Below, in pieces: positions 8,634-61,396 of a DNA stretch of 64,000 bases. Under the pieces are notes generated by a model. It searched no databases. It was given only the letters and a program-made list of their open reading frames with translations, and had not been told where the DNA came from. Position 1 is the stretch's first letter. Each line of letters begins with the position of its first letter. The position numbers were made by a program, and so were the translations under genes. Source of the stretch: a virus; the IMG/VR virus record IMGVR_UViG_3300049844_000277, positions 36,520 to 100,519 of that record; one strand, written 5' to 3'.

Positions 8634-9083
8634 TCACCCGCCTGAAACAACTTCAGGCTTTGTATCGAACTTGCGCCCCAGTTCGCGCCCAAGAGTTCCT
8701 AACAACATACCACCGCCAAGCTGTCCCGCAAATCCGCCCAAAGGAGCCCCTAACAGAGACCCTGTTAAATTTCCAATAGCTTGTCCTACTACTTCTCCGC
8801 GATATTCAGACGGTGTCGCCTTAGTTTGTAGTGCTGTAAACACCAAAGGAAGCGTAAGAGTTCGCGAAAGATCTCCGCCTGTACGCGGTAAACCTTGCGT
8901 GTATAATCCTGTCTCTGGGTGAAAAAGTGTGCCGTGGTATATTTGCTTTGCGGCCTCTATCGGTCTTCCAATCGCTGAAATGCGTGCCGCCGTAAGAAAA
9001 TCACGAAACGCTCCCGCGCACTTAGTAGCCTCGAAATCTCGTAGTGCGTTTGACGCGCCTGCTATATACGCCCAGTCACGCAT
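8634..9083 (-). CDS. Small Gly-rich hypothetical protein with a hydrophobic C-terminus.
   Basis: ORF in the operon. The C-terminal GGFAGQLGGGMLLGTLG segment is membrane-like. Confidence 0.4.
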   Translation of the reverse strand: MRDWAYIAGASNALRDFEATKCAGAFRDFLTAARISAIGRPIEAAKQIYHGTLFHPETGLYTQGLPRTGGDLSRTLTLPLVFTALQTKATPSEYRGEVVGQAIGNLTGSLLGAPLGGFAGQLGGGMLLGTLGRELGRKFDTKPEVVSGG

Positions 9084-9085
9084 AA

Positions 9086-10885
9086 TTAGTAACGCCCTTC
9101 CGGACCCATCCCAAATTCAGCCCCATAAGCATAGGCGGGTACCGGATGCGTACTGTGTAAATCAGACGCAGCGCCGGTTCGTGCCCCCTGCAGAAGGGAA
9201 TCCTTTAGATATCGGTGAGCCAAGCGCGCCATCCAGTCAGGATGTAGCAGTGGATTACGTGCCATCGGACGCATCAAAAATTCTACCCGAGGTAATGTAG
9301 TGGCGACAGATACTTCCGAAATTTTATGCTCATTCAATTTCTGTATAACTGATGGTGTTAACGGAGTTCCGGCGGTGAAGTGAAGAACTTCTTTACCGAG
9401 TACACCACCCTCCGCCTGCTTCAACGGAACAGATTTACTGTGCCGTGCTGCGGCATCTCTATACGTTGAGTAAGGAATAACCTCGCCCTTTACCAACGTA
9501 GGATGCTCATCAGTATGCTCGAGAACTTTGACGTGGTTGAGGTCCGCGCGGGCAACCAACTCAAGGTGCCGCTTGTCGACATTGAGTCCTTGTCCATGAT
9601 AGATGTCGTGCAATGTGTCCACGAGGTACTGTCGTCCGACACCAAAGCCCTTGTGATGAATGAGCTCGTCTGGTTTCGGAATTCCTTCTGATAAGACATC
9701 CCCCGCCTCTACTTTCTGTCCCACATGAACTAAGATTTTTAAGTTTGGTCCGGCGTAATGTTGTAAAGCATCAACATGCACGTATGTTCCACCGTGCGGA
9801 GCTGGGATTATTTTTGTAATAGTACCTGCGTGCTCTGCTAGCGGTGCTTTATTAATGAAGGTCTGGGGGATTTCCAAAAGCTGACGGATACCAGACATCC
9901 CCTCTAACTTGGGGGATGTACCTTTGAGTAACCGCATACCGTGCTTAGCGCCGAGCGCCATTTGAGTCAACGGTTCGGAGATAGACTGGGCGGCACGGAC
10001 TCCGACGTTAACACCGATAGCGTGCGGACGTCCTCGCTCATCTAGACCCTGGCACTTACGACAGACGCCATCCTTGGTGACGCAGGTCATTGGTGAACGC
10101 ACGTACACTGTACTGACCTTTGCCTGAAGCTTAGACGCCACTTCTTTTGTAACTAAATCATTCCGATGAAATCCAGCCTGGTCTCGAGATAAATAGCGGT
10201 CAACAATATTTCCATCGGAACTATTCATTGCGAGACCGTTATCAGTTCCGCAATCGTCCTGGGTAATAACCAGCGGATACATATTGTTGGTCATCACCTT
10301 AGACATATCGCCAGGCTCTGCGATGGCCGTATAGGTTTGTACGATGTTATGTCGCGCTTCGTTTCCTGCGGCCCAATGGTCAGCAGCGGACAACCCTTCG
10401 GCGTAGGACTTACTGATTAGCCAGGGATTTATCTCCCCTTTGCTTGTCGTAGTCGCAACCGGGGACGCAATGGTTTTCATCAGCTGCGGAATATTGCCGC
10501 GCGCACCCGACAATGCCATCGAGGTCATAGAACCTGGATGCTTTTTGGTGTGCTCAAGCATCTTCTTTTGTACATCTAAAATAATCTTCTCTTTGGCGTC
10601 TCTATTGTCCGCGTTTTTAATTGCGGCGACAGCGGGCTGCATGATGCTGTCGCGTTCTTTGTACTCCGGCGTAATGTCATCCAACCCTACAGAGACACCT
10701 TCAAGCGTAGAGATGTCGTCCCCTAAGGTTTTTAGCTTAGAGACAATTTCTACGTATTCGGCAGGATCTTCCTTGGCCAAGTCCAACATTTTCTGTTGGA
10801 ACTCTTTTTTATTTAGTGTGCCCGTAATGTGATGCTTCCCGGGCAGCAGGCTATTGACCAGAAACCTACCTAACGGCTGAGCCAT
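9086..10885 (-). CDS. rpoC: DNA-directed RNA polymerase beta' subunit, C-terminal module (trigger loop / regions F-H). This is the split second half of beta'.
   Basis: N-terminus [31 protein letters not shown] aligns with E. coli beta' [54 protein letters not shown] matches the AAQSIGEPGTQLTMRTFH motif. [20 protein letters not shown] matches [20 protein letters not shown]. Confidence 0.85.
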   Translation of the reverse strand: [599 protein letters not shown]

Positions 10886-10891
10886 GGGAAT

Positions 10892-11308
10892 CTATCTCGC
10901 CCCGTATGGGTCATTAGGAGGCGGAGGTTGTTGAGGTTGAGACGGTGTCATGGCCTGCTGTATGCCCATCATAGCTAGGGGAATAGACGCTTGAATCGCC
11001 ATATCCCGCCCAAAACTTTTTAAACCTGATTTCCAACCACCTGGCTCTTGGGCTGGCGTTGCGGGGACCTCAGGTGTCTTTGGTACAGTGTCCGCAGACG
11101 TCACTGCCGGATTGGCGGTACCACCAAAAATAGGCGGCTTGCCTGCTGGCTGCTGTACCGGCGCTGCTGGCGATGTCTTCGGCGTAACAGGTTTGCCCTT
11201 CTGACCCTTCGCGAAGCGCAGCATCTGAACGGGCGCAGGCGCAGCCGTTTTCGTAAACGTCATCCACGCATCAGTAGTTCCCACAGAATAAAAGATATCG
11301 GCAATCAT
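10892..11308 (-). CDS. Pro-rich small hypothetical protein.
   Basis: ORF between the RNAP gene pieces. PQQPPPPNDP and PAAPVQQPAGKPP tracts. Confidence 0.4.
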   Translation of the reverse strand: MIADIFYSVGTTDAWMTFTKTAAPAPVQMLRFAKGQKGKPVTPKTSPAAPVQQPAGKPPIFGGTANPAVTSADTVPKTPEVPATPAQEPGGWKSGLKSFGRDMAIQASIPLAMMGIQQAMTPSQPQQPPPPNDPYGAR

Positions 11309-11664
11309 ATCGCAGCTCCGTCCCGACCAATGCCGGAGTAATCATACGTAGGCGAGCCGCCGCTCCAAGGACTTGATACTCCGCCCCATCGTACGGGGTT
11401 CCCAAAACGCTCGCGACGTTTATCACGCTCAGGGGAAATCCCCGGGTCCATGTCCGTAAGATGCTTAGCTAACCGCTCCGCGGCTACGTTCATATCCCCG
11501 TGCGGAATAGCATGCTGCATGGCATGAGCGGCGGTTCTCACGCCGAAATCTTCTTCTGCGCGAATTCTACCTTCAGCGTAAGCTAAATTCGTCATACGAA
11601 AACCTAGGCTACTCTCGCCCACTACGCAATCGATTAGGTGTAACAGCGTTCTCTTTCCAACCAA
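11305..11664 (-). CDS. Hypothetical protein (119 aa) with a faint, unproven resemblance to RNAP omega.
   Basis: Position inside the RNAP operon. The segment MTNLAYAEGRIRAEE weakly resembles the omega SKYRLTVVVAKRAQQL helix pattern. Weak evidence only. Confidence 0.35.
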   Translation of the reverse strand: MVGKRTLLHLIDCVVGESSLGFRMTNLAYAEGRIRAEEDFGVRTAAHAMQHAIPHGDMNVAAERLAKHLTDMDPGISPERDKRRERFGNPVRWGGVSSPWSGGSPTYDYSGIGRDGAAI

Positions 11665-11750
11665 CTAAAGCTTCGCGCTTTTTAACGGCATCCTTTAGTT
11701 TCTGCGCTAATTCTTCAGCGGCGATGCGCTGTCCTTCCTCGTAAGCGTAC

Positions 11751-12380
11751 TTAAGTACCGGCTCCACGGGAACCTCCTTCACAGAACATCATTCGCCGTA
11801 GGTCATCAGCATGCTGCTGGTCAGTAAGGACCATTTGCTCCAGCATGACCTTAAGCGACAAATTATCTCCGGCCATGTCTGACAGATGTCGTAACTCTTC
11901 AATCAATTGCTTCTCAGTTTGTAGAAGAGTCATGAAAATCTGGTGGAGGTCACTCATGTTCGGGATGACACCTACCTTAGGAATAGGTTCTCCGCCTAAC
12001 GCCGTAATCTTCATTGCGAGATGGTAGGCGTCCATCCGCTCTTCTTTGATGTGCTCTTTAAAGTGGTCGTAGATAACATCTCTAAAGTGCGCACGAATAC
12101 GATCGCCATAATTCATATACATGAAGATGATGGTATATTTGTAGCGCAGCAACTTATTACACTGAGCCACTACCTTATCCTGGGCAACCGCGAAGAATCC
12201 TTCCTCGGCCGATACAGCAAGAGGATGAGCACCAGCAGATGCTGTGGCAAGCGGAGGCATGGCGAACATCTCCTCCGTGTGCGGGGATGACTCCATTGTG
12301 TCCGCCATTGGACTGCTAGGAACTGGAAGACTCGAGCCACTCTCAGCCATGGAAGTACCCACTTTGTAGCGCTGCGTCAT
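11751..12380 (-). CDS. Ferritin-like (bacterioferritin/Dps-fold) four-helix-bundle protein.
   Basis: KEERMDAYHLAMKITALGGEPIP matches the EExxHAD.L.ERI..L.G.P helix-B pattern of bacterioferritin/Dps. C-terminal LEQMVLTDQQHADDL matches the ILESEEEHIDYL pattern of the last helix. Confidence 0.5.
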   Translation of the reverse strand: MTQRYKVGTSMAESGSSLPVPSSPMADTMESSPHTEEMFAMPPLATASAGAHPLAVSAEEGFFAVAQDKVVAQCNKLLRYKYTIIFMYMNYGDRIRAHFRDVIYDHFKEHIKEERMDAYHLAMKITALGGEPIPKVGVIPNMSDLHQIFMTLLQTEKQLIEELRHLSDMAGDNLSLKVMLEQMVLTDQQHADDLRRMMFCEGGSRGAGT

Positions 12381-15300
12381 GTACCCACCTCAACTCGAGT
12401 ATTGAGCGTAATCTCCCCGCGCTTATAGGCGGCGAGAGCTTCTTCTCTATTTTTGAAATGGCGTACTTTATCGTTCGCGGAACTCTCGGCTTTGGACGCC
12501 AAATGTACCCCAAGCATAGCTTCCATTCGTGGCGCTACCATCAAGCTATCTTTTTCACGGTCCGAGAATAGAAGGTTTGAGAGAGTCATCCCCTTCACTT
12601 CATCTATCGCGGGCTTCAGTACGGGAACGTGGATTTGGAATGTGTCCCAAACTACGAGGCCGTCGTTGACCGCGAAAATTTGTGTGTCAGGAACAATAAG
12701 GTCATAGACGGTTTCTTTTCTTAATACCTCGACCGACTCTACTAGATCCCAGGTAATTCCAACGTTCTCAACGATCCTTGCCCAAGCATCGACATCTGGT
12801 GTTTTGGCCGTCCGGAAAAAATGCAACATACGCCGAGCGTTTTGCCTCGTAACGTATGGAGCCTCTTTTCGTTTAGATCGTAGCGTAGCCAATGATGCGC
12901 AGAACGAACTATCTTCCGCGCACGGACCAGTACGGCTGGAGGCGAGGGTCATTAGATTTTTAGGAACAGGAACAATATCCACCTGATCCACAAGTTCATC
13001 AGCTTCTAGGAGGTTCAAAGCCTCCAAAGATTTAGAGTTGTTCCAAATTCCTCTACGAAGCCAGGACACGTTACGCTGGAGGTCTACGGTACTAATAGGT
13101 ATCGTATAAGCTACAGCTTTTTGGAGACGTCCCTCCTTCGGATATGCTTCGCTCACAGAACACCGGACGCCGATAGTTTGTAACAAAAAACGTAATGAAG
13201 CTGCTAACGCAGCAGACGACGTGTGAAGGGCGGCCATCACTTGAAGTTTTGCCTTACCGGCGCTGACAGTGAGTGTACCGTCACCGTTCAACATTCCGAT
13301 GAGCACACCCCACCGAGCCTCCTCAGACCAGTCCCCAAACGCTGGCACGCGTTTCGAGAGACAAGAGCGTCCGGGTACCCTCTCATCTAAGTAACAAGTC
13401 TTGAACAGCTCAACGCACTTCTGCGCACCACTAAAGTGGTCTTTGATACTTTGTCCTGTTATTCCGTTAGATGCGTCGTGTACCTCACGATACGTATTTC
13501 GCTTAATGAGCTTACCCTCAAACGCATTCACCGCGGCAGCAAAGCGTTCACGGTGCACGTCACTAACTTTCGTGTACCCGAAATAATGATCGGTTTCACC
13601 CAGTAAGAAACCGTCGGACAAGAATGCGCCGACCATCCATCCAAACTCAAAATCCCCCTGTGACCCCGTTAACGGTAAATGCCGCACAACCGGAGCTAAC
13701 TTTCCAACGGAATCCGAGGGCGCTGTTGCTTCGATCTGACCTGTTTCATGGTTATAAATACACAACGACTCATTCGTCGACGCCGTAACGCTTAAACCAC
13801 GACGCATTTCTACTTTCGCCACTTCGCATCCGTCTTCAATCGTAAGTCCTGTCACCGGGGACATTACTGATTTACTTGCGGAGTGGTCGTAAGAAAGAAC
13901 GCGAAAACCCTCCGGAACGGCGTAACTGCGAGCACCATTCTTGTCGATACTATAGGGCTCCTCAGCGTGTGGAATCTCTTGAAGCTCCGCTTCCACCAGC
14001 GCCTGTACCGCTGAGGTCCAACAAACACGAGTCTCTGCCGCGAATTTCATGGCTGTCTCCTTGGCTTCATCGCCAAGGAGCGCTTTACAAGCCGCACCTT
14101 CTGCTGTCAACACAACTTTCGTCGAACCCAAGAAACAGTTTCCATCGTAATCCGCATTGAAGCCAAGCTCTGCGAACGGATTTACGCGAATCGTCTTCCC
14201 CGCAACAGGGACGGCGTGAGCGCCAATAAACCCGTACCGGTGGAGAGTCGGAGCGCGATTCACCATCACCGGACGCTCCTTAATCTCCGCCATCAACGCG
14301 TCGTGCGCTGCCGGATGTTTCTTTTCCAACATCTCTTTCGCTTGAATGGCTCCGAAGCCGCGACGGATAAGGCGTGAGATAATAAACTTCCCGTACATGC
14401 CCCAAAGCATGTCTATCGGAATACCTATCTCATCCATGCTCAGAGAGCCGTCTGGAGCTATGGTTCCGCGGCCGGAGATATCTTGCTGCCGCTTCATTAT
14501 TCGTTTTTGGAAAAAGGAACTGTTCCCCGATACGGAAGGTTTACCGTTACGGCGAACAACTACAGTACCATTAGGGACTGTCACACAATACACGGTTCCT
14601 TTGTACGGGTACGCCTCGGTAAAAGAGCCCGACTCAATGGTGACATCAGAAAACCCCCGCACAGAAAAAAGATAATGCGGGAGATGGTGATCCTTAACTG
14701 GCGGACAAATTCCTCTAAAAATAACTTGGTAACCTATTTTTGCAGCGAGATGCTGTAGGTCATCAATTAATTGTAAACTAGCGGTACCGGCGTGAGCACT
14801 CAGCGGTTTACGCCGATAATGGGTTTTCGGGTTTTTCACGTTCTTCGCTAACGAAGGGTGAAGGGTTCCATCTCCACGCAGATATCCGCGCAATAATCCC
14901 TCTAACATAGCAGAAGGCCACGCTAAAATATCTGAAGATAAGTGTTTACTCTCGCACCCACGCCCGCAATGATGCGTTAACCAATCCGCCAGTGAGCGTA
15001 ACCTAATAGTCCACCAGATTACCTGGTATCCATCTTTACGCGTATATGTTTTGCGTACAAAGGGAATATCCAATTTTTTAAAGCACAAATCCACCGCGCG
15101 AACGTGTGGAGACGTTGCGGCTTGACACAAAGAAACCTGGGTTCCTGTTGTGGAAATCCAACCTTCCGCAATCCACCAACCTACAAACTCCGCAAAGGCC
15201 AAAGGATCTGGAGTAAATGTTCCTACTAAATTAGCCGTACGCCGTTTTTTGTTATCCGTAGAAACTTCACACGTATCTCCCGCGAAAACCAACTCCGGAA

Positions 15301-18300
15301 AAGTACCCTCCCACTCCTCAGCGCTAACCATTACCCTCCGGCGGTCCGTGCCTATAAAAGTATCCGCGCGTACCTTTTCCCACGGAGTCCAGACATAGAG
15401 CGCCTTACCGTTACTTACGCGCTTACGGCGATACGAGACTACATGTTCGTGGTTAGGTGTTACACATAAATCAAGTTCACGGCTGCGCGTATGTATCAGA
15501 TCTCCGTCGAACGGCATGGATACTAACGCGGTCGGCTTCTGCCATTCAAATTCCCGGGTGTCTAAGTTAACCGTAGCGACACGAGTTTTTCCGGTGTACT
15601 TAGAAAAACGAACCCACCCTTTTTCTGTAAGAATATCTGTTTGATCATCGTAACATTTTGGCGTAGTTTTCCCGGTAATATGCTCGAGAAATCCCTTTAC
15701 GTTTCTCTTTTGGAGTTTGGGGTTATCTGATTCGTGCGTACCAATCACGGCGCCTACCGCGTGAAACAAGTTCTGACGAAGCTTCGCTTGTTCATCCGGC
15801 GGAAGAATTGGAGATTCAATTTGCTTCCGTAATGACTGATTATGAAGGATAGCGCTTTGGTACAGGTAGTTCGAATCACCTACTACGAGCTCAGAGCCAC
15901 TCTTCCCCGGAAGAATGGGTCGCATTATTGGAGGAAGAACAGGCAACTTGGATAGGACGTACGCATCTCCCGGCTTGAGCTCCTGCCGATTCAGCGCCTC
16001 AAGGAACTTCAACTGCTTTACTGCGTCATCTAGCTTCGTACCGGAGAGCGACTTAATAGAGTTACGGAGCTCCGCGATACGCGCCTTAACGTCGATAGCG
16101 TTAAGCTTTTTCTTTACCGCAGCGCCACCATTCGTATGGTGATACTGGTCAAAATCTTTCGCGGTCATCCCCAGCAAGCGACGGGCAGGGTCGGCGAATA
16201 CAGGATTTACAACGGGCTCGGCGAGCTCAATGTGGCTCCACCGTGTTCCAGTGGTACCGCCAGTAACCGCGGGGTCAAACAATCCCCCACGTTCAGCGGC
16301 CAAATCTTTAGCGCGTACTAACTTCTCATTTTGTACTTCGCCAGATGACATCCGTAGAATGTCTTTATCGGTAAGCGGAGAGAGCGTGCTGATACTTCCA
16401 CGCGAATCAACTTTGACCCCTGCGCCATGCAGCATACCGATGAACTTGTCATAAACGAACGACGACTTGAGTGGAGGGAGAGGCAGTCCCAGCTGAATCG
16501 CCCGCCAGAACTCATCGTTCTTCTGGCTCTTAATAGCCGCCGTCTCTCGAAGCACGTTCCGCGCATTATGTGCAACGAGGGCATTGAACTCCATTTTACC
16601 GACGGCTTTCGCGCCTTCGTCACCGCCCTTAATTGGCTGCTGATTAACGTCGTACGCACCCGTACCGCGCGCGGCGTAGTTGGTCTCCGTGGTCTTAAAC
16701 AAGCGAAGTACGTATTGCGGCCCAACCAGGATTCCCGGAATCTTTTTACCCGACACAGGGTCTATCAGCGTTTCCTTGTCCTTGACCTTGTGCTCCTTCA
16801 GTAAATCCTTTGCCCACTGTACGTTGTCACGCCCTGAAAAGTTTTCAACGACAATAGGTTTACCGATTTTCTTGGCAACCTTAGCGACACACGTCTCTAG
16901 TATTTGCGACGGATTGATTCGGGAAATTACGCCAGCCGAGGTATACAAAACCTCAATCGGCTTACCCGTCTCATCTTGAAGCATCTTGTGATCGGGAACA
17001 ATAAGGGAAACAACGCCCTTGTTTCCGTGGCGTCCTGTGTTTCCGCACCATACTGATTTACCATTTCTGCGAACATACAAAACATGTCCAGGAACAGTTA
17101 CACAGTAAACTGGTGATTTGTACGAATCTACAAAACATTCCACCTGACCCTTCTGTCGTTTGATATGTCCATGATTCACAGTAGGTGTTAATTTCGAATT
17201 AATAATTCGTACCTGCCAATAATCACGACACCAAAAATCTTTACCTTTGATTGTTTGATACCCTTCAGCTTTCGCTAACGACACATTAGCAGCTTTACCA
17301 ATATGTAGTGCGAGACGCTGAACATCATCCGCCAAACGTTTGGATGTTGTTTTGTAGCATATCGGTTGGCCATTTTTAGTATGACCGTCACCCCACATCA
17401 ACCAGTTGAATAGCGTCTCTTGATCCGCTCGAGACCAAGCGAACACCTCAAGCGGGATAAATTTCTCGTAAGACTTACCGAACTGTTTAAAGTACTGCCA
17501 ATATTGCTTGGAATGAATACGAACCTTATCACCTGTGTCCGTGAATAAAATCCCTTCCTCACGAAGAAACTTTTCTAACTGTTTTCGATTTGGCTGATTA
17601 ATTTGCGTAATCTCTATGCCGTAAGTACCGGATTCTTCAATCGTAATGAGATTACCTTCAGATAAAAACGCACCGAGAAGAGCGGCTAAGGTTTTAGTCG
17701 GAAGCGCTTTATCATCTAAAACACGTAAACCCCGGCCCCCTTGTCCCGCGCGCACAGTTATCGAGTCAAATACAAACGACTCAGGAGAGTGCCCCACCCA
17801 AATCCCATCCTTCTTATAACTGACCCTTTTTCCTGCGATTTCATACGCCGGTAAAAGTTGGAAAGATTTCTCGTTGCGCGGTTGAACGTACATATGATGT
17901 CCGTCGGTCACAAACAAATCTACCTGTTGTGATTCGATGCGGTACATCCGTCCGCCTTCTGGATACGAATGAATTGCGTCGGGCTCTAGGTACTCGATAT
18001 TTTCGCCATTCTGTAACGTACAAATCTTATCCGTAATACGTACATCCGCTATCGGTTTCCACCCTTCCCACGTGAGAACCTCAGTCTCTGCATCATAACA
18101 GAGCTTGTCTCCGACGCGCATCGGCTCACGGGTCTTAACCGTTACAACGACACGCTTGTCCGTCACATAAACATCCATGACTTCACCTTCGAAGTCGTGG
18201 TCCCACGTACGAACAAGTTCCCGATACGGCGTAACTAACGTCTTCTTTAGGTTACCGAGAAGCGCATCAGACGCCGAAAGTTTACCTCGTGTGACTCCAG

Positions 18301-31259: not shown

Positions 31260-32093
31260 CTACTCAAGAAAAACATCTTGAGACGTTTCTACTTGATTTG
31301 CCAATAAGTATGTCTTGATTTGCGCGAGAGTGTCCTTCTTAATCTGCCGGACACGTTCAGAAGATAAATCTACTCTTCTGGAAATCTGCCGGAGATTTTT
31401 AGGCTCTTCTCTCGCGCCGTAATACGCCAGGACAATATATTTATCTCGTTCGCGTAGAGATAAGTTATCTAACGCACGACGTAACATAGTAAGGCCGTAC
31501 GTATTCACTAAATCACGTTCTAAGCTCACATCGCAGTGTCCAGCTACGTCAATAGCGCCAACAGCATCCAACGTAACGTGCGGCTGCTCTACATCAACAC
31601 CGCCACCACTCTTACGTTGCGCTCTTAACGCTTTCTGCTTATGGGCAGGGACACGAATAATTCCTTGACTATCTAACTCCTCTAGTATTTTCTCGCGAAC
31701 CCACCACGCAGCGTATGTAAGAAACTTAGTATTGCGTGAGGTATCAAAACGATCCGCCGCGACTAGAAGTCCTACGTTACCGGCGGATATCAGTGACGTC
31801 AATAGTTCGTTGTCGAACTTTGGTCCCTTAGTGCGATAAGCATATTCTTTCGCTACTTTCACAACAAAGCGAAGGGCTCCCGAAATAAGTCGATCACGCG
31901 CTTTAAAGTTTCGCGGAGTATTACACCTAGGACATCGGGTAGCTGAAGATCCCAAGCTATACGAAGACCTGCACGCAGAACAAGTGCGGTAGGCCTTTAC
32001 TAGATCGCGTTCCTCTCGTTGAGGAATGAATTCATTACCACGTAAATCAGCGAAATAAGCCGAGACTACACGGTCATTGTCCATTGGGTTCAT
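31260..32093 (-). CDS. Sigma-70-family RNA polymerase sigma factor with an N-terminal zinc-ribbon insertion. Antisense to the surrounding plus-strand module.
   Basis: - Region 2.1/2.2: ARDRLISGALRFVVKVAKEY.
- Region 2.3/2.4: FLTYAAWWVREKILEEL.
- Region 4.2 HTH: ISRRVDLSSERVRQIKKDTLAQIK.
- Insert: CSACRSSYSLGSSATRCPRCNTP. Confidence 0.8.
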   Translation of the reverse strand: MNPMDNDRVVSAYFADLRGNEFIPQREERDLVKAYRTCSACRSSYSLGSSATRCPRCNTPRNFKARDRLISGALRFVVKVAKEYAYRTKGPKFDNELLTSLISAGNVGLLVAADRFDTSRNTKFLTYAAWWVREKILEELDSQGIIRVPAHKQKALRAQRKSGGGVDVEQPHVTLDAVGAIDVAGHCDVSLERDLVNTYGLTMLRRALDNLSLRERDKYIVLAYYGAREEPKNLRQISRRVDLSSERVRQIKKDTLAQIKTYLLANQVETSQDVFLE

Positions 32094-34143: not shown

Positions 34144-37100
34144 GTGCCCACAACCCGAGGAGCTCTCATGGAGAAGCCCGCAGAAATCTGCAGCGGATGT
34201 CCTCGAGAAATCGAGACAGAGACCCATCCCTACGGTTATGTTGAATCGTGGATTGATTCAAACGCCGAACTCATCATCATAGCGGAAGCTCCTGTCTGCG
34301 ATCGCCACGGTAACGTTCCTAGCTCTTTCGACGATGACAGCGGTAAAATCATTCGAACCGCCGTATCCGAGCTACGTAACTTACCTTCGCACAGTAAGCT
34401 AGCGGTCTCGTATACGTACGCAGTACTCTGTACAAGCAACCAGGGCGACAAAGACCCCGAAAAAGCCGTACTGCAACGGTGCCGTACGCTGCTCCAAGCT
34501 GACTTACGTCGCGCAAACAAGAACGCCGTCCTGCTGGTAATGGGTATGTCTGCCCTTCGCGCACTAGAAATAAAAGCCGCGAAGTTGAAGGACATGCAGG
34601 GGCGATTACTCCAAAAGCAGAAAATTGGAGAAGGTGATGACGCTCCGATATTCGATGTCGTCGTAACCGTCTCGACAAAACAGTTGTTCGCGATGCCGGG
34701 AATCTACACGACGTTCGTAGCGGACCTGCGACGAGCTGCGGACGCTGCGAGCGCAGGTGGATTAACACACGTTACCCCACTCGAAAAACTAACCGAAAAA
34801 TACGTAATCCCGAAAACAATCGAAGAAGTACGCCAAATCTGTCGCGAAATACTGAATTATCAAGAAGGTAAAGTATCTGCAGATAACTGGCCTATCTCTG
34901 TAGACACCGAGACAAACACCAAGTTTCCACACCGAGAAAACTTGAAAGTATTGGCGGTGTCCTTCGCATGGGCGGAGGGTAAAGCTACTGCAATTCCATT
35001 AGAGCACCCCACTACACCCTACGCGTACCAAGACGCGATACCGTACGTACGCGAAGTCTTAGCGAGCAAGAAGCCGAAGTTCCTTCATAATGCTAAGTTC
35101 GACCTTAAAGTCTTCATGAAAGCGGGCTGGCCGATTAACGGGTTCGCTTGGGATAGCATGCTAGGGGAACATGCTCTCGAAGAAGATAAAAAGGGACAGT
35201 ACGGATTAAAGCAGTTGACCCGTACTTTCTTCCCGGAATTCGCGACATACGCCGACTCTCTTCAAGAAATGCTCACGCACGAAGAGGGCGACTCGCAGCT
35301 CGACAACCTGAGGAAAGCGCCAAAAGCTTCAACTTCGAAAGATGGGGGATTTGAAAGTATCCCACTTCCCACGCTATTGCTTTATGCGGCAGTCGATGCA
35401 GATATGACACGGCGGCTAGTGTTACTGCAGGAAAAAAGAATTACCGACGAGCAGAACAGAGTAATCGTAGAAACGAATATAACGAAGAGAGAGCAGGCGC
35501 TGGCGATTTCGGCGAGGAAGAAAATACGGCTGAGAATTGCGCCGCTACATAGTGAGACGGAGATGTTGAAGAAGTACATGGTGCTCTACCCCGTCCCAGA
35601 ACTCTGTTCCGCTGATAAGCCGGTAAGACAACTAGTACTGAACAACGTATTCCCCGTTACCCCAGCTCTCGCGAGAATGGAGTTTAAGGGCATACGGATA
35701 GACAGACCGTACCTAACTACGTTGCGTGAAGCGTTGGGAAAAGTCGTCACAGAAACCGCTGCAGAGCTACAGGATATGGCGGGCAGAGAGATAACTCTCA
35801 ATAGTCCGGCAGAGATAGCTGAAATCCTGTTCAACAGCGGGTTTATACATCCAACAACTCACGCCCCCACGACTTATCCCCTCACAGGCATCGGTAAGAC
35901 AAAAACGGGACAGATACAAACCACCGAGAAAGTGATGCAGTACTTGGTGGCGAAGTATCAGTGCCCCTTTGCAGCTAAAAAACTAATCTACGCCAAGGCA
36001 TATAAAGCGAAAAATACGTTCTGTCAGAATGTGTGGGATCTCTCGGAGCTCGACGGGTATCTACACACGAACTACAACCAGCACGGCACAAATTCGGGTA
36101 GACTGTCCTGTGTCGCGGGAGAAACCGTACTAGATACTAATTACGGAAAAATCGAGATACAGAATCTCGATCTGGAGAAGATGCCGGGGATTACCATCCA
36201 GACCCACGAACTCCGCGAACAACCGATTCTACGTAAAATAGAAAAAGGCATTGAAGAAATGTTCGAGGTCGAACTCGAAGACGGGCGCACCATCACCGTG
36301 ACTAAAAAACATCGCTTCTTGACGCCGACGGGGTGGAAACGACTCGAGGAACTGTCAGAAAATGCCGAAATACTCTGCGCCGCCTCCGTGGGTAGTGGAC
36401 CAAATATGCGACTCGTTACAACCCGGATAAAAAGCATACGTCCCGTAGGTCCTAAGAAAGTCTGGGACCTCACAGTAGCGGTCGATCACTCTTACATCGC
36501 CCACGGATTTGTTAACAAAAATTCCAACGATGAAAACATGCAAAACATCCCCAAGAAATTGGCGGGTGTTAACATTAAGAAAGTGTTCCTCCCGGACGAT
36601 GATTCGTATGTCTTCGTCAACGCTGATGCGAAGGGTGCCGAAGTACGAATCCTAACCGCCTACTGCCGAGACCAAGCGCTCATACAATCGCTCAACGCGG
36701 GGCAGGACACGCATTGTTTCATCGCGTCCAAGATTGTTGAAATCGTACGTCAGAGTCCTGGTGCAACGGCGGTTCTCGGAAGCATGAATCTAAGCGATGA
36801 GTATCCTCTGACGTACGAAGACTTCGCGGCTAGAGACAAGCTAAAAGAAACCAATAGTAAGTACGGGGCGATGCTCGACAAATTCAGAACCGCTGTCAAA
36901 CGCGTAGTGTTCGGTATTCTGTACGGCGCCGGTCCTCAGAAAATTGCGGAAACTATTGGTATCAGTCTAGAGCAAGCACAACAGCTCATTCACACTCTGT
37001 TCGCTTTGTTTCCGTCCATCAAGACGTACATGGCGCAGACAAAGTGGGAACTACAACAATTTAATTTAGTCGAAACGTTCTTCGGTAGACGCCGTAGATT

Positions 37101-37527
37101 TAGTGTATCGGGAGCGCCGAAGTATCAAATAGGGAGAGCTGAACGTCAGACAGTTAATTTTAAAATCCAAAGCACAAGCTCTGATATCGTAATGGGACGA
37201 TTACTAGCAATCGAAGAACCTCTCAAAGATTTGGGAGGTAGACTTCTATTGACAGTGCACGACAGCCTTGGGTTTCAAATCAAGAAAAAATATATCCGAC
37301 AGCTACCTGATTTCATTTATACGTATTTGGAGAAGGGTGCAGCAGACGCCCATCCATGGCTCCCAGTCGCATTTAAATGGGACTACGAAGTTGGGTCATC
37401 ATACGGCGAACTCAAATCACTGGAATCCTACCTTGCCAACACGAAAATAGAGGAATACTCGAACGATGCCTACGTCGCCGAGGCTTTCACAGAAGAAGAC
37501 GCAAGAACCTCCCTCTCCGAACCCTGA
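34144..37527 (+). CDS. polA: Family A DNA polymerase (Pol I-like) with a 3'-5' exonuclease domain, interrupted by a mini-intein.
   Basis: - Exo I: ISVDTETN.
- Exo III: YAAVDADMTRRL.
- Pre-motif A GRLS//SNDENMQNIP matches GRLSSSDPNLQNIP.
- Motif A: FVNADAKGAEVRIL.
- Motif B: RTAVKRVVFGILYGAG.
- Motif C: LLTVHDS. Confidence 0.9.
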   Translation: MPTTRGALMEKPAEICSGCPREIETETHPYGYVESWIDSNAELIIIAEAPVCDRHGNVPSSFDDDSGKIIRTAVSELRNLPSHSKLAVSYTYAVLCTSNQGDKDPEKAVLQRCRTLLQADLRRANKNAVLLVMGMSALRALEIKAAKLKDMQGRLLQKQKIGEGDDAPIFDVVVTVSTKQLFAMPGIYTTFVADLRRAADAASAGGLTHVTPLEKLTEKYVIPKTIEEVRQICREILNYQEGKVSADNWPISVDTETNTKFPHRENLKVLAVSFAWAEGKATAIPLEHPTTPYAYQDAIPYVREVLASKKPKFLHNAKFDLKVFMKAGWPINGFAWDSMLGEHALEEDKKGQYGLKQLTRTFFPEFATYADSLQEMLTHEEGDSQLDNLRKAPKASTSKDGGFESIPLPTLLLYAAVDADMTRRLVLLQEKRITDEQNRVIVETNITKREQALAISARKKIRLRIAPLHSETEMLKKYMVLYPVPELCSADKPVRQLVLNNVFPVTPALARMEFKGIRIDRPYLTTLREALGKVVTETAAELQDMAGREITLNSPAEIAEILFNSGFIHPTTHAPTTYPLTGIGKTKTGQIQTTEKVMQYLVAKYQCPFAAKKLIYAKAYKAKNTFCQNVWDLSELDGYLHTNYNQHGTNSGRLSCVAGETVLDTNYGKIEIQNLDLEKMPGITIQTHELREQPILRKIEKGIEEMFEVELEDGRTITVTKKHRFLTPTGWKRLEELSENAEILCAASVGSGPNMRLVTTRIKSIRPVGPKKVWDLTVAVDHSYIAHGFVNKNSNDENMQNIPKKLAGVNIKKVFLPDDDSYVFVNADAKGAEVRILTAYCRDQALIQSLNAGQDTHCFIASKIVEIVRQSPGATAVLGSMNLSDEYPLTYEDFAARDKLKETNSKYGAMLDKFRTAVKRVVFGILYGAGPQKIAETIGISLEQAQQLIHTLFALFPSIKTYMAQTKWELQQFNLVETFFGRRRRFSVSGAPKYQIGRAERQTVNFKIQSTSSDIVMGRLLAIEEPLKDLGGRLLLTVHDSLGFQIKKKYIRQLPDFIYTYLEKGAADAHPWLPVAFKWDYEVGSSYGELKSLESYLANTKIEEYSNDAYVAEAFTEEDARTSLSEP
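36109..36522 (+). mobile_element. Intein 5: mini-intein (138 aa, no endonuclease domain) in the DNA polymerase.
   Basis: - Starts CVAGETVLDTNYGKIEI.
- Ends VWDLTVAVDHSYIAHGFVNKN with +1 Ser.
- Boundaries codon-verified (tgt at 36109 = Cys; aat at 36520-36522 = Asn). Confidence 0.8.
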
Positions 37528-46728: not shown

Positions 46729-47331
46729 ATGGACCTCTACTGTCTTCGTGTTCGTAGGAACATCGCTGGACGTAAATTTCCCTTCGATAGAGTGTATCTC
46801 GCGAAATACGGGGATCACGTTATATTCAAAAGATTATTCAGGTATGCCTTCATCCTTCCCGTTGAAGGCGTACTAAAGGAAACGCTGTACTGTCTCCCCA
46901 TTGAAGACAGCATGACGCACGCATTCGACAGAGTAGAAACGCCTGAGAAAATTCCAGATGTAGAGTGGAAGACGCTCATCGACTCGACGGACTGGGTACT
47001 CGCGGTACCGATTCTATCGAAGTACGTGACCGCTAACATGCCGAGATATATTATTGCCAAGTCCACGGTGCCCCGAAGAGACAAGAAAAACTCTAACGCG
47101 TGCGCAAACCCGTTTCCAAACATGACGTACTTGCAGACACCCGAGCAAAACATTCGGCCAATATGTGTCGCATGTCCGAACTTTATCCAGCATCAGAACG
47201 GTCACTGCGAACTTGGAGATAAGCTCTGCTACGACTCTCTTTCCCTGGGAATCCGAAATCACTTTGAAGAAGGCATGATGGTTCCTCCTGCCCCGGAAAA
47301 AGAACAAGTGACTGAGGAGGGGAACGACTAA
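46729..47331 (+). CDS. Hypothetical protein (200 aa), first gene of the RT operon. The track ORF starts at 46630, but the upstream part crosses the terminator and is non-coding.
   Basis: First ATG after the terminator, in frame. The stop overlaps the RT start (TAATG). Cys-rich C-terminus: CVACPNFIQHQNGHCELGDKLC. Confidence 0.5.
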   Translation: MDLYCLRVRRNIAGRKFPFDRVYLAKYGDHVIFKRLFRYAFILPVEGVLKETLYCLPIEDSMTHAFDRVETPEKIPDVEWKTLIDSTDWVLAVPILSKYVTANMPRYIIAKSTVPRRDKKNSNACANPFPNMTYLQTPEQNIRPICVACPNFIQHQNGHCELGDKLCYDSLSLGIRNHFEEGMMVPPAPEKEQVTEEGND

Positions 47332-48467
47332 TGCCTGTCTACAAACAAAATTTCCTTGAGCGAATTGAAGTACGCGAGCCACTCATCAAAGGCGTACCCC
47401 TTATCGTCGATGACTGGAGTCTGGCATTCCAGCTAGGTTTTACGGGTAAGACCGCGTGGTACATCATCCATGAACGCGCCAGTATGTACCGGGAGTTCAT
47501 GCTGAAAAAGAAGTCTGGGGGTCTCCGTAGAACGTTTGATCCAACTAACCTCCTGCGCATTTTCCAGAAACAACTACGCGCACGCATTCTGTTCCCGCTC
47601 GTATCTCGCCTAGGTCCGCACGTAGCCGCGTATCAGGTCGGTAAGAGCACGCTTGATGCGGCAAACTGGCACCTGCGCGAGTGTAAAATCTGCGACGACA
47701 CGACCCGTCCCGGCACGAGTCCTGTGAAACATGAGTGTCCTCGACGGGGTGTGAAGTTCAAAATGGATTTGAAGGATTTCTTTCTATCGACTCGTCGGTC
47801 CTGGATACGACAGTATTTCCACGAAGTCGTCGGATACAATCACTACGTCTCGTCGATTCTGGGGCACCTACTGACGACGAGTTATAAAGATGAGCGGAGA
47901 AAAGACAGGAACGGCGTTCCGCCAGGCGCATTAACAGCTGGCGATATTTGTAATCTCATCTGTGATTGGAAGATAGATCAACCGCTTATGGCGGCACTAC
48001 CCACAGGCTGGAAGTACACACGGTACGCCGATGACTTGTATTTCTCGTACGACGCACCCCTTCCATCAAAAGAAGTAAACAAGATAATCCGACTAGCCTC
48101 GGACACCATCACCGGCTCCGGTTACCGGGTAAATTGGAAAAAGCTCCAAGTGCAACACTGGAGCCGGCCCCAGCGAGTACTAGGTATCAATATCAACAGA
48201 AAACTAAACATCCCTGCGACTGAGTACCGTCGAATGCACATGATTCTGTATAAAGCAAAGAAGCATGGATTCCAGGCGCAACTTACGTGGGCAAAGAAAG
48301 CCGATGTTCCGGAACTTCACGCCTGGATAACCGGCAAACTGAATTACTACGCGCGATTCGCACCAGATAAAACCAATAAACTACAACGGCTTTATCAAGA
48401 AGCGAAGGACGCGAATCCAAGCGAAGAGGCCGCGGTGTTCAACTTTGGAACCGGTGCAAACCCATGA
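47331..48467 (+). CDS. Reverse transcriptase (retron/DGR/group-II-like clade) with a Cys/His-rich insertion.
   Basis: - Motif 1: KKKSGGLRRTFDP.
- Motif 2a: AAYQVGKSTLDAA.
- Motif A: VKFKMDLKDFFLS.
- Motif B: VPPGALTAGDICNLI.
- Motif C: YTRYADDLYFSY.
- Motif 6: VLGINI.
- Thumb: GKLNYYARF.
- Insertion: CKICDDTTRPGTSPVKHECP. Confidence 0.85.
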   Translation: MPVYKQNFLERIEVREPLIKGVPLIVDDWSLAFQLGFTGKTAWYIIHERASMYREFMLKKKSGGLRRTFDPTNLLRIFQKQLRARILFPLVSRLGPHVAAYQVGKSTLDAANWHLRECKICDDTTRPGTSPVKHECPRRGVKFKMDLKDFFLSTRRSWIRQYFHEVVGYNHYVSSILGHLLTTSYKDERRKDRNGVPPGALTAGDICNLICDWKIDQPLMAALPTGWKYTRYADDLYFSYDAPLPSKEVNKIIRLASDTITGSGYRVNWKKLQVQHWSRPQRVLGININRKLNIPATEYRRMHMILYKAKKHGFQAQLTWAKKADVPELHAWITGKLNYYARFAPDKTNKLQRLYQEAKDANPSEEAAVFNFGTGANP

Positions 48468-60979: not shown

Positions 60980-61396
60980 CTATAATCCGAACACGCTACT
61001 CGCCGCATCATATCCTTGTCGGTAAGCAGCAGGGTCTCCCGCCTTCTTCACCTCTTCGTAGAGCCCGCGGACCTTCTTGTCGCTCTTGTTCGCCTCGTCG
61101 TGCGCGGTCTCGTAGTTCATCCCACGGTTCTTCATCAGACGATGCTCGATGGCCTCGTGAATGACCGTTGAGACGCGGTCCTTAGGGGAGAGGTTCTTCT
61201 CCACCCACATCTCGCCTTTCGGGATGTACGAGTACCGCGAAGGGTTCCCGCCCATCGTGAAGTCGGTGTCGATGTCGTCCCGGACCTTCGTTCCGTCCAC
61301 CGTCTTTATTTTTAGCTCGTCGGGGCCTGAACGGGGCGCAGTGTCGCGGCGTTTTTCATCTGCTATTTTGGTGAGGTTCGTTGTTCTCGTAACCAT
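60980..61396 (-). CDS. Small protein with an HExxH motif. Possible minimal metallopeptidase (ImmA/IrrE-like?).
   Basis: VIHEAIEHRLM. Weak evidence. Confidence 0.35.
   Translation of the reverse strand: MVTRTTNLTKIADEKRRDTAPRSGPDELKIKTVDGTKVRDDIDTDFTMGGNPSRYSYIPKGEMWVEKNLSPKDRVSTVIHEAIEHRLMKNRGMNYETAHDEANKSDKKVRGLYEEVKKAGDPAAYRQGYDAASSVFGL

Follow-up and report, generated by a model that had tools for sequence, protein, structure and literature searches.

A ferritin-fold protein with a remodeled metal site encoded between the two halves of the RNA polymerase β' subunit of a large tailed phage

The closest deposited relatives of the phage RNA polymerase (RNAP) considered here, as judged by the C-terminal part of its β' subunit (β'C; about 33% identity), are those of Salmonella phage Arash (181 kb) and of Vibrio phages D181, D148 and D69 (about 187 kb). 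The Arash homologues of the RNAP genes sit between the portal and the structural genes; the RNAP subunits Gp206 and Gp216 were among the most abundant virion proteins in mass spectrometry and the sigma factor Gp10 was also detected in virions, with the authors' proviso that abundant intracellular enzymes may be present as contaminants (PMC10585845). Another described component is the InPase type of domain, a phage polyvalent-protein domain that is likely packaged and injected (Iyer et al., 2017, PMC5512222) and that was suggested in the same paper to clear pyrophosphate for early transcription or replication; the word "ferritin" has 0 occurrences in the text of that paper. In the present study, we analyzed 64,000 nucleotides (nt) of the IMG/VR virus record IMGVR_UViG_3300049844_000277 (positions 36,520 to 100,519 of that record; this whole stretch is referred to as the window), in which a gene within the RNAP block codes for a ferritin-like protein. 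Our favored reading, to which we assign a probability of roughly 40%, is that this protein is translated together with the RNAP and delivered in the virion as an accessory of the phage transcription module. The gene and its two parts are as follows (aa, amino acids).

11751..12380, minus strand: ferritin-like gene, stop codon included, 209 aa; from the list of open reading frames (ORFs), the PF00210 match and 78 homologues
12186..12380, minus strand: N-terminal extension, aa 1–65; from model confidence (predicted local distance difference test, pLDDT), family alignment and isoelectric point (pI)
11775..12185, minus strand: four-helix-bundle core, aa 66–202, which holds the remodeled metal site

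The first-pass annotation had called a ferritin/Dps fold from helix patterns, quoting the strings KEERMDAYHLAMKITALGGEP and DQQHADDL, and both strings are present in the 209-aa ORF. A Pfam search matched the ORF to PF00210 Ferritin over aa 73–196 (E 4.3e-11), at 43.3 bits against a gathering cut-off of 24.5 bits, and PDB sequences 2qqy (E 1e-8) and 9qq4 (E 6e-6) were matched as well. The AlphaFold2 model, with a pLDDT of 85.8 overall and above 95 in the core, forms an up-down-down-up four-helix bundle, and structure comparison placed mini-bacterioferritin, Dps-like and bacterioferritin structures nearest to it. All of these sources agree, and the ferritin fold of the product is confirmed, far above chance. 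PDB matches to sigma factors were also returned (E 0.19–0.23) and were taken as chance. Clustering at 90% left 78 homologues, all of them metagenomic and on contigs of at most 190 kb.

The extension is acidic (pI 4.5, net charge −5; the family median pI is 5.2) and is predicted to be disordered, with residues 1–60 at pLDDT 58–75. Two motifs are conserved in this part of the family: M-x-x-R-Y-K-(I/V) at the N-terminus, in which Tyr5 is at least 90% conserved, and TASxGxHPLAVSxEEG(L/F)F just ahead of helix A, in which Glu60 is invariant. A public gene call by the Joint Genome Institute (JGI) for an identical protein (P0001) begins at Met38 (12267–12269), giving 172 aa, and omits both the conserved N-terminal motif and the overlap with the RNAP gene described below. 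We consider Met1 the better start, because the conserved RYK(I/V) motif with its Tyr5 and a Shine-Dalgarno sequence ahead of Met1 both argue for it. Removal of an N-terminal propeptide by a prohead protease at S-x-E-E-G was also considered and set aside as speculation, since the large fusion proteins discussed below carry an inconsistent G-x-L-E-G at this place and no protease was identified.

The position of the gene relative to the polymerase is defined by the following features.

12377..20887, minus strand: RNAP β + β'N fusion gene, 2836 aa; upstream, in the same transcription unit
12384..12391, minus strand: Shine-Dalgarno sequence GAGGTGGG, within the final codons of the upstream fusion
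12377..12380, minus strand: ATGA overlap, formed by the TGA of the β-β'N fusion and the ATG of the ferritin-like gene
11609..11767, minus strand: small ORF, 52 aa from the second GTG, overlapping the ferritin-like 3' end
9086..10885, minus strand: RNAP β'C gene, 599 aa; Rpb1_5 (E 7.6e-19) and Rpb1_4 in Pfam; 33% to Arash Gp216

The 2836-aa fusion holds the Pfam domains Rpb2_3, Rpb2_6, Rpb1_1, Rpb1_2, InPase, LAGLIDADG_3 and Intein_splicing; with Rpb1_1/Rpb1_2 in this protein and Rpb1_4/Rpb1_5 in the 599-aa ORF, the ferritin-like gene does lie between the halves of β', as had been proposed. Its coupling to the fusion gene, also part of that proposal, is real and conserved, with the overlap reversed: it is the start of the ferritin-like gene that falls on the stop codon of the RNAP gene. 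The ferritin-like stop, which had been placed on an RNAP start, overlaps the 52-aa ORF instead, and three small ORFs come before β'C. The GAGGTGGG Shine-Dalgarno sequence stands four bases 5' of the ferritin-like ATG, and GAGGTGGG or GGAGAT motifs are found alike in the loci of relatives; as read from the sequence, the stop/start overlap is an arrangement for translational coupling of the two genes. What had been described as an unspecified mobile element is part of a large tailed phage, as indicated by the kinship of β'C to Arash and the Vibrio phages and by the gene content: the window encodes a large terminase, a portal-like protein with an intein, a family-A DNA polymerase (PolA) with an intein and a sigma-70-type factor, together with ParB, an SNF2 helicase, PD-(D/E)XK nucleases, Prim-Pol, a VapE-like helicase and a reverse transcriptase.

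Two scans of IMG/VR showed that the position between the RNAP fusion and β'C is kept in about 25 distinct loci, across which identity falls to about 42% for the RNAP fusion and to 26% for the ferritin-like protein. In every locus with enough flanking DNA the gene order was SNF2 (opposite strand), portal, a 165-aa gene, RNAP fusion, ferritin-like gene, small ORFs, β'C and four conserved genes. Sixteen RNAP-linked loci were examined for the overlap; in 13 of them the RNAP end and the ferritin-like start share 1, 4 or 20 nt, and the remaining three gave no call. Beyond these relatives, tblastn against 50,697 deposited phage records returned no match to the ferritin-like protein or to the domain of a canonical relative, and megablast of the locus likewise found nothing. 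A single weak match of 36 residues came from 185,579 cellular species genomes, and given that scan we dropped a prophage or host origin of the gene; the clade appears to be essentially viral. We regard the ferritin-like gene as a long-established part of one large phage group and not as a general companion of this polymerase type, as far as the sampled loci indicate.

A profile search of 1.84 billion representative sequences gave 675 matches at E ≤ 1e-3, the best 150 of which were examined. Among these 150, 72 were proteins of 500–1100 aa with the ferritin domain N-terminal in nearly all. In these large fusions a leader of the form ...PPDxxGxLEGxF, with the equivalent of Glu60 conserved, precedes the ferritin domain, and low-complexity, glycine-zipper and Gln-rich coiled-coil segments, sometimes with DUF5661, come after it. 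They make up a large and previously undescribed family of phage proteins, and both types of ferritin domain defined below, Glu-type and Lys/Asp-type, occur among them (P0116, P0126, P0132 and others); a search of IMG/VR found no close relatives of P0132. Two large-fusion genes could be placed (L030 10001–12391 and L031 2425–4857): a major-head-protein gene and then three small genes precede one of them, and a tail-sheath gene stands four genes downstream of the other. A search of viral protein structures likewise showed that Dps/ferritin-like domains are common in uncultured tailed phages, with some fused to a "prohead protease".

Two further relatives join the ferritin domain to the InPase type. 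P0115 consists of HExxH-like, ferritin and InPase domains, and P0260 of MazG, InPase, DUF5661 and ferritin-like domains; their InPase parts match PHROGs annotated as minor head protein, virion structural protein and DarB-like antirestriction. Domain fusions of the polyvalent type are thus present in these relatives, while the window protein itself is single-domain. The parts of P0115 also correspond to separate features of the window, namely an HEAIEH (HExxH) protein (41%), the ferritin-like gene (32%) and the InPase insert of the RNAP (42%). The HEAIEH protein (138 aa, 60980..61396, minus strand) is without a Pfam match and is possibly a minimal metallopeptidase like those of polyvalent proteins. 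The insert is an InPase (PF18823) pyrophosphatase domain within the β part of the RNAP fusion (18761–19120, minus strand). Its presence is variable, as it is absent from Arash, D181 and several ferritin-bearing relatives, and no correlation with the ferritin-like gene was seen, several loci having the gene without the insert.

The mini-bacterioferritin Mper-mBfr (9QQ4) binds its di-iron center through Glu16, Glu49, His52, Glu91, Glu124 and His127 and its heme through Met50, the heme ligand being strictly conserved in mini-bacterioferritins (PMC13168243). Pairwise and profile alignments gave the following equivalents in the phage protein, that of Met50 coming from the pairwise alignment with 9qq4.

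Glu16: Lys81
Glu49: Glu114
Met50 (heme ligand): Arg115
His52: Asp117
Glu91: Glu156
Glu124: Asp187
His127: His190

Instead of the six-ligand set Glu, Glu-x-x-His, Glu, Glu-x-x-His, the protein has Lys81, Glu114-x-x-Asp117, Glu156 and Asp187-x-x-His190, and no canonical ferroxidase site of the kind that the first-pass annotation had proposed to look for was found, the departures being Lys81 for the helix-A Glu, Asp117 for the helix-B His and Asp187 for the bridging helix-D Glu. The remodeled metal site consists of these six residues together with His106 and His110. Lys81, Glu114, Glu156, Asp187 and His190 are invariant among 74 family sequences, position 117 varies in the same alignment (Asp, Ala, Ser, Cys or Gly), and Tyr88, His98, His106 and His110 are conserved as well. 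Counting the residue offset on the 9qq4 alignment, the dimer-site residues His29, Glu56 and Glu60 of mini-bacterioferritin correspond to Arg94, Leu121 and Ile125. The conserved helix-B cluster His98/His106/His110/Glu113–114 appears to differ in spacing from the Dps inter-subunit site (His, His, Asp / Asp, Glu), as compared on the sequence.

The changes at positions 81 and 187 are coupled. Among 149 aligned sequences, comprising the top profile matches, the query and PDB references, the pair was Glu/Glu in 70, Lys/Asp in 68 and Arg/Asp in four, and the helix-B His was present in 67 of the 70 Glu-type sequences versus 8 of the 73 Lys-type. Sister lineages retain the full Glu / Glu-x-x-His / Glu / Glu-x-x-His set. 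Lys/Asp forms fell into at least two to three separate clusters in neighbor-joining order and Lys-His-Asp intermediates exist; the Lys81/Asp187 pair would seem to have arisen more than once in phage lineages, the number of events being provisional because the neighbor-joining tree is rough. One of the two ancestral iron positions appears to have been dismantled, with the half made up of Glu114, Glu156, Asp187 and His190, which holds the iron-2 ligands, retained. The simplest reading is that the amine of Lys81 occupies the iron-1 position in a pairing with Glu114 and the shortened Asp187, which would leave a His at position 117 dispensable. What is left is possibly a single-metal or alternative metal site.

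Three familiar identities were considered for a protein of this fold. A heme-binding bacterioferritin was rejected, the position of the heme Met being occupied by Arg115, and a DNA-binding Dps was disfavored, the N-terminal tail being acidic rather than basic. For an encapsulin cargo, neither a targeting peptide (the C-terminus reads ...RRMMFCEGGSRGAGT, as compared with the consensus) nor a shell gene was found, and the neighbors are RNAP genes. A classical ferritin, bacterioferritin or Dps role is unlikely, because the di-iron site is not intact, the heme Met is missing and the tail is acidic.

We propose the following course of events for a virion-delivered accessory. The overlapping stop and start codons would fix the ratio of the ferritin-like protein to the β-β'N polypeptide. 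The block as a whole looks like a late, structural-type one (portal, RNAP, ferritin, β'C, structural proteins), and the ferritin-like protein might be taken up into the head and be delivered to the cell together with the virion RNAP and the DNA. Delivery in the virion is supported by the presence of the Arash RNAP in virions, by the relatives in structural modules and by the InPase fusions. The ferritin bundle would serve as a stable body, possibly binding a single metal and possibly oligomeric, the N-terminal tail, acidic and with a conserved motif at its end, could act as a tether or targeting element, and iron-storing ferroxidase action would have no part in this scheme. The sigma-70-type gene of the window and the sigma factor found in Arash virions suggest, for this phage group, a multisubunit RNAP that is sigma-dependent and carried in the virion.

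Several observations weigh against this proposal. The presence of the ferritin-like protein in virions, or its contact with the RNAP, is something that we infer from genomic context and sequence. The Arash virion proteome of 116 proteins is not clean, as it includes obvious cytoplasmic enzymes (PMC10585845). Searches with a hidden Markov model (HMM) of Arash (1–50 kb and 127–153 kb) and of Vibrio phage D181 (138–164 kb) showed no ferritin-like ORF even at E 10; both share the RNAP arrangement, so the gene is dispensable for this polymerase type. The whole block is syntenic, and the conserved position alone is therefore no proof of a specific partnership. The head and sheath labels near the large fusions come from modest PHROG matches (4e-8 and 3.5e-5). 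Stand-alone genes of the Lys/Asp type in phage contigs of 127–436 kb (L016 9845–10450, L018 9941–10450 and L025 10004–10498) adjoin SbcC-like, RecA-like and RuvC-like genes, with no structural block. Finally, some metal chemistry may persist, because four canonical ligands are conserved along with His98, His106 and His110.

The same data bear on the possibility that the protein belongs to the RNAP itself, as a true subunit in stoichiometric amounts or as an assembly factor, and might join β-β'N to β'C or replace alpha/omega, with a purely structural use of the fold. This would account for a gene placed exactly between β'N and β'C with a stop/start overlap, for a position kept in about 25 loci, even where the identity of the protein is as low as 26%, and for the degraded di-iron site of catalytic type, and extra non-homologous subunits are generally known from jumbo-phage RNAPs. 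Known RNAP subunits (alpha, omega, delta, epsilon and sigma) showed no sequence or fold similarity to it. The subunit claim is weakened by the Arash and D181 polymerases, which have the same architecture without the gene, and by the occurrence of the domain away from any polymerase, its closest outside relatives being in RNAP-free loci or within large structural-module proteins. Nor was an RNAP-ferritin fusion seen among the best 150 of 675 profile matches (the longest was 1117 aa, and 12 large ones had no RNAP domain in Pfam). We therefore consider a subunit role doubtful.

Alternatively, the protein could be a working ferritin or Dps that sequesters or oxidizes iron or detoxifies peroxide, protecting phage DNA or the cell, with its place in the RNAP block incidental. 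The structures nearest to its fold are those of mini-bacterioferritin, Dps-like proteins and bacterioferritin, Glu114, Glu156, Asp187, His190 and Tyr88 are conserved, His98, His106 and His110 could make another metal site, sister lineages retain the full ligand set and Dps/ferritin-like proteins are common in phage structure databases. Set against this are the invariant Lys in place of the helix-A Glu, the lost or variable helix-B His, Arg115 where Met50 would bind heme, and Arg94, Leu121 and Ile125 at the dimer site (by offset count). Furthermore, protein and tail are acidic (median pI 5.2, and 4.5), unlike the DNA-binding tails of Dps, and strict co-translation with an RNAP would be unexpected for a stress protein. 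We judge such a function unlikely, and an iron store is probably not what the protein provides. The first-pass annotation had left three options, and the site changes, Arg115 and the acidic tail weaken two of them, iron storage and classical protection against oxidative damage; the third, a non-enzymatic structural partner, is the one that genomic context favors. A remodeled metallo-enzyme with a mononuclear or hetero-binuclear site and a catalytic or carbamylated Lys81, acting on nucleotides or nucleic acids together with the InPase activity, is very improbable: the invariant polar cluster in the bundle (Lys81, His110, Glu114, Glu156, Asp187 and His190) and the repeated fusion of related domains to InPase or MazG nucleotide-pyrophosphatase domains would fit it, but a 140-aa bundle is minimal and has no extra substrate-binding elements, ferritin-like oxygenases score no higher than storage-type ferritins, and we know of no precedent.

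A virion-delivered accessory of the transcription module thus remains our preferred explanation. A more specific form of it, which we think improbable as it stands, would make the ferritin-fold protein, devoid of iron oxidation, a dedicated stoichiometric part of a virion-packaged, sigma-dependent RNAP, for example an oligomeric hub with acidic tails that hold the polymerase in place or keep it silent within the capsid until injection.

On that more specific reading, tailed-phage capsids would carry a ferritin-like cargo, a counterpart of the encapsulin cargo in HK97-fold shells. A protein acting together with the packaged polymerase would represent a new kind of accessory factor for phage multisubunit RNAPs, and the ferritin fold would then have been re-used in virus particles for a role other than iron. 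The wider clade, with its N-terminal domains of large structural-module proteins and its InPase fusions, makes up a branch of the ferritin superfamily that is essentially confined to viruses and has not been described before, and which may connect phage capsid contents with encapsulin cargo, and the paired change of Glu to Lys and Glu to Asp amounts to a natural experiment in the dismantling of a di-iron center. If the protein is merely a degenerate stress or iron protein, the interest would be modest.

Several neighboring features of the RNAP block were recorded. Two small ORFs follow the 52-aa ORF listed above.

11305..11595, minus strand: small ORF, 96 aa from the ATG at 11595; tblastn identity 59–64% in close relatives
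10892..11308, minus strand: proline-rich small ORF, 138 aa; from the ORF list

The Shine-Dalgarno sequence GAAGGAGG of the 52-aa ORF (11773–11780) coincides with the CEGG codons at the C-terminal end of the ferritin-like gene, and tblastn found this ORF in four related loci (L001, L007, L009 and L011) at 64–74% identity. The 96-aa ORF had no Pfam or PHROG match, and the proline-rich ORF no significant family match, an ORF of similar size being present at the same position in L001. These three ORFs between the ferritin-like gene and β'C are candidates for further polymerase or virion accessories. On the 3' side of β'C, a 149-aa protein (8634–9083, minus strand) has a glycine-zipper segment, GSLLGAPLGGFAGQLGGGMLLGTLG, resembling those of the large ferritin-fusion proteins. 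No strong minus-strand terminator was found within the run from the RNAP fusion to β'C. A near-perfect hairpin with a 15-bp stem lies at 21800–21833, just 3' of the 165-aa gene that follows the portal; it marks the boundary before the RNAP block and a gene in divergent orientation and probably terminates transcription in both directions.

Inteins are frequent in the window, with five in total. Three interrupt the RNAP fusion (about 17042–18100, 14522–15655 and 12644–14137), at least one of them with LAGLIDADG; intein-free homologues of the fusion are of about 1600 aa (one is 1604 aa), and the intein sites vary among related loci. The portal-like gene (22363–25374, minus strand) carries one, with Hint and LAGLIDADG domains, and codes for 1003 aa versus 576 aa in relatives, and the family-A DNA polymerase gene (34144–37527, plus strand) carries another, seen as an Intein_splicing domain. 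The sigma-70-type factor, with regions 2 and 4, is encoded at 31260–32093 (minus strand). A reverse transcriptase (RVT_1) gene at 47331–48467 (plus strand) could belong to a diversity-generating retroelement or to a defense or anti-defense system.

Comparison with described systems places the protein as a member of the ferritin superfamily that, on its residues, is neither a bacterioferritin or mini-bacterioferritin nor a typical Dps. In contrast to Mper-mBfr (9QQ4, PMC13168243), three of the ligands, the heme Met50 and the dimer-site residues are all changed. PDB 2QQY, a ferritin-like di-iron-carboxylate protein from the sigma-B operon of Bacillus anthracis, is cellular, keeps the Glu / Glu-x-x-His / Glu / Glu-x-x-His set and is without the 65-aa N-terminal extension. 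Phage Dps/ferritin-like entries in BFVD (e.g., A0A6J5QUQ7) are of the same fold and from tailed phages, at 12–17% identity, and had no link to RNAP genes as far as they were examined. A literature search returned no description of a ferritin-like gene in a phage RNAP operon, of coupled Lys/Asp remodeling or of the link to structural modules and InPase; phage ferritin/Dps-like genes have been annotated before, and it is the position in the RNAP operon, the Lys/Asp remodeling and the fusion links that appear to be new.

Jumbo-phage RNAPs carry extra non-homologous subunits, such as phiKZ gp68 and AR9 gp226. These are small phage-specific proteins encoded beside split β/β' genes (PMC7598289); their association with the RNAP is physical, whereas the ferritin-like protein is known from its genes, and the two sides have no likeness in sequence or fold. 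With the polyvalent proteins (PMC5512222), the common element is the InPase type, which occurs both in the ferritin-fusion relatives and in the neighboring RNAP. By analogy, the metal site itself has a counterpart in the vertebrate L-chain ferritin, which has the same fold and in which a Lys-Glu salt bridge replaces the ferroxidase center and leaves the chain non-catalytic. L-ferritin has no close sequence kinship to the phage protein and still forms iron-storing 24-mers with H chains; a salt bridge of the L-ferritin kind is nevertheless the likely logic of the Lys81 / Glu114 / Asp187 arrangement.

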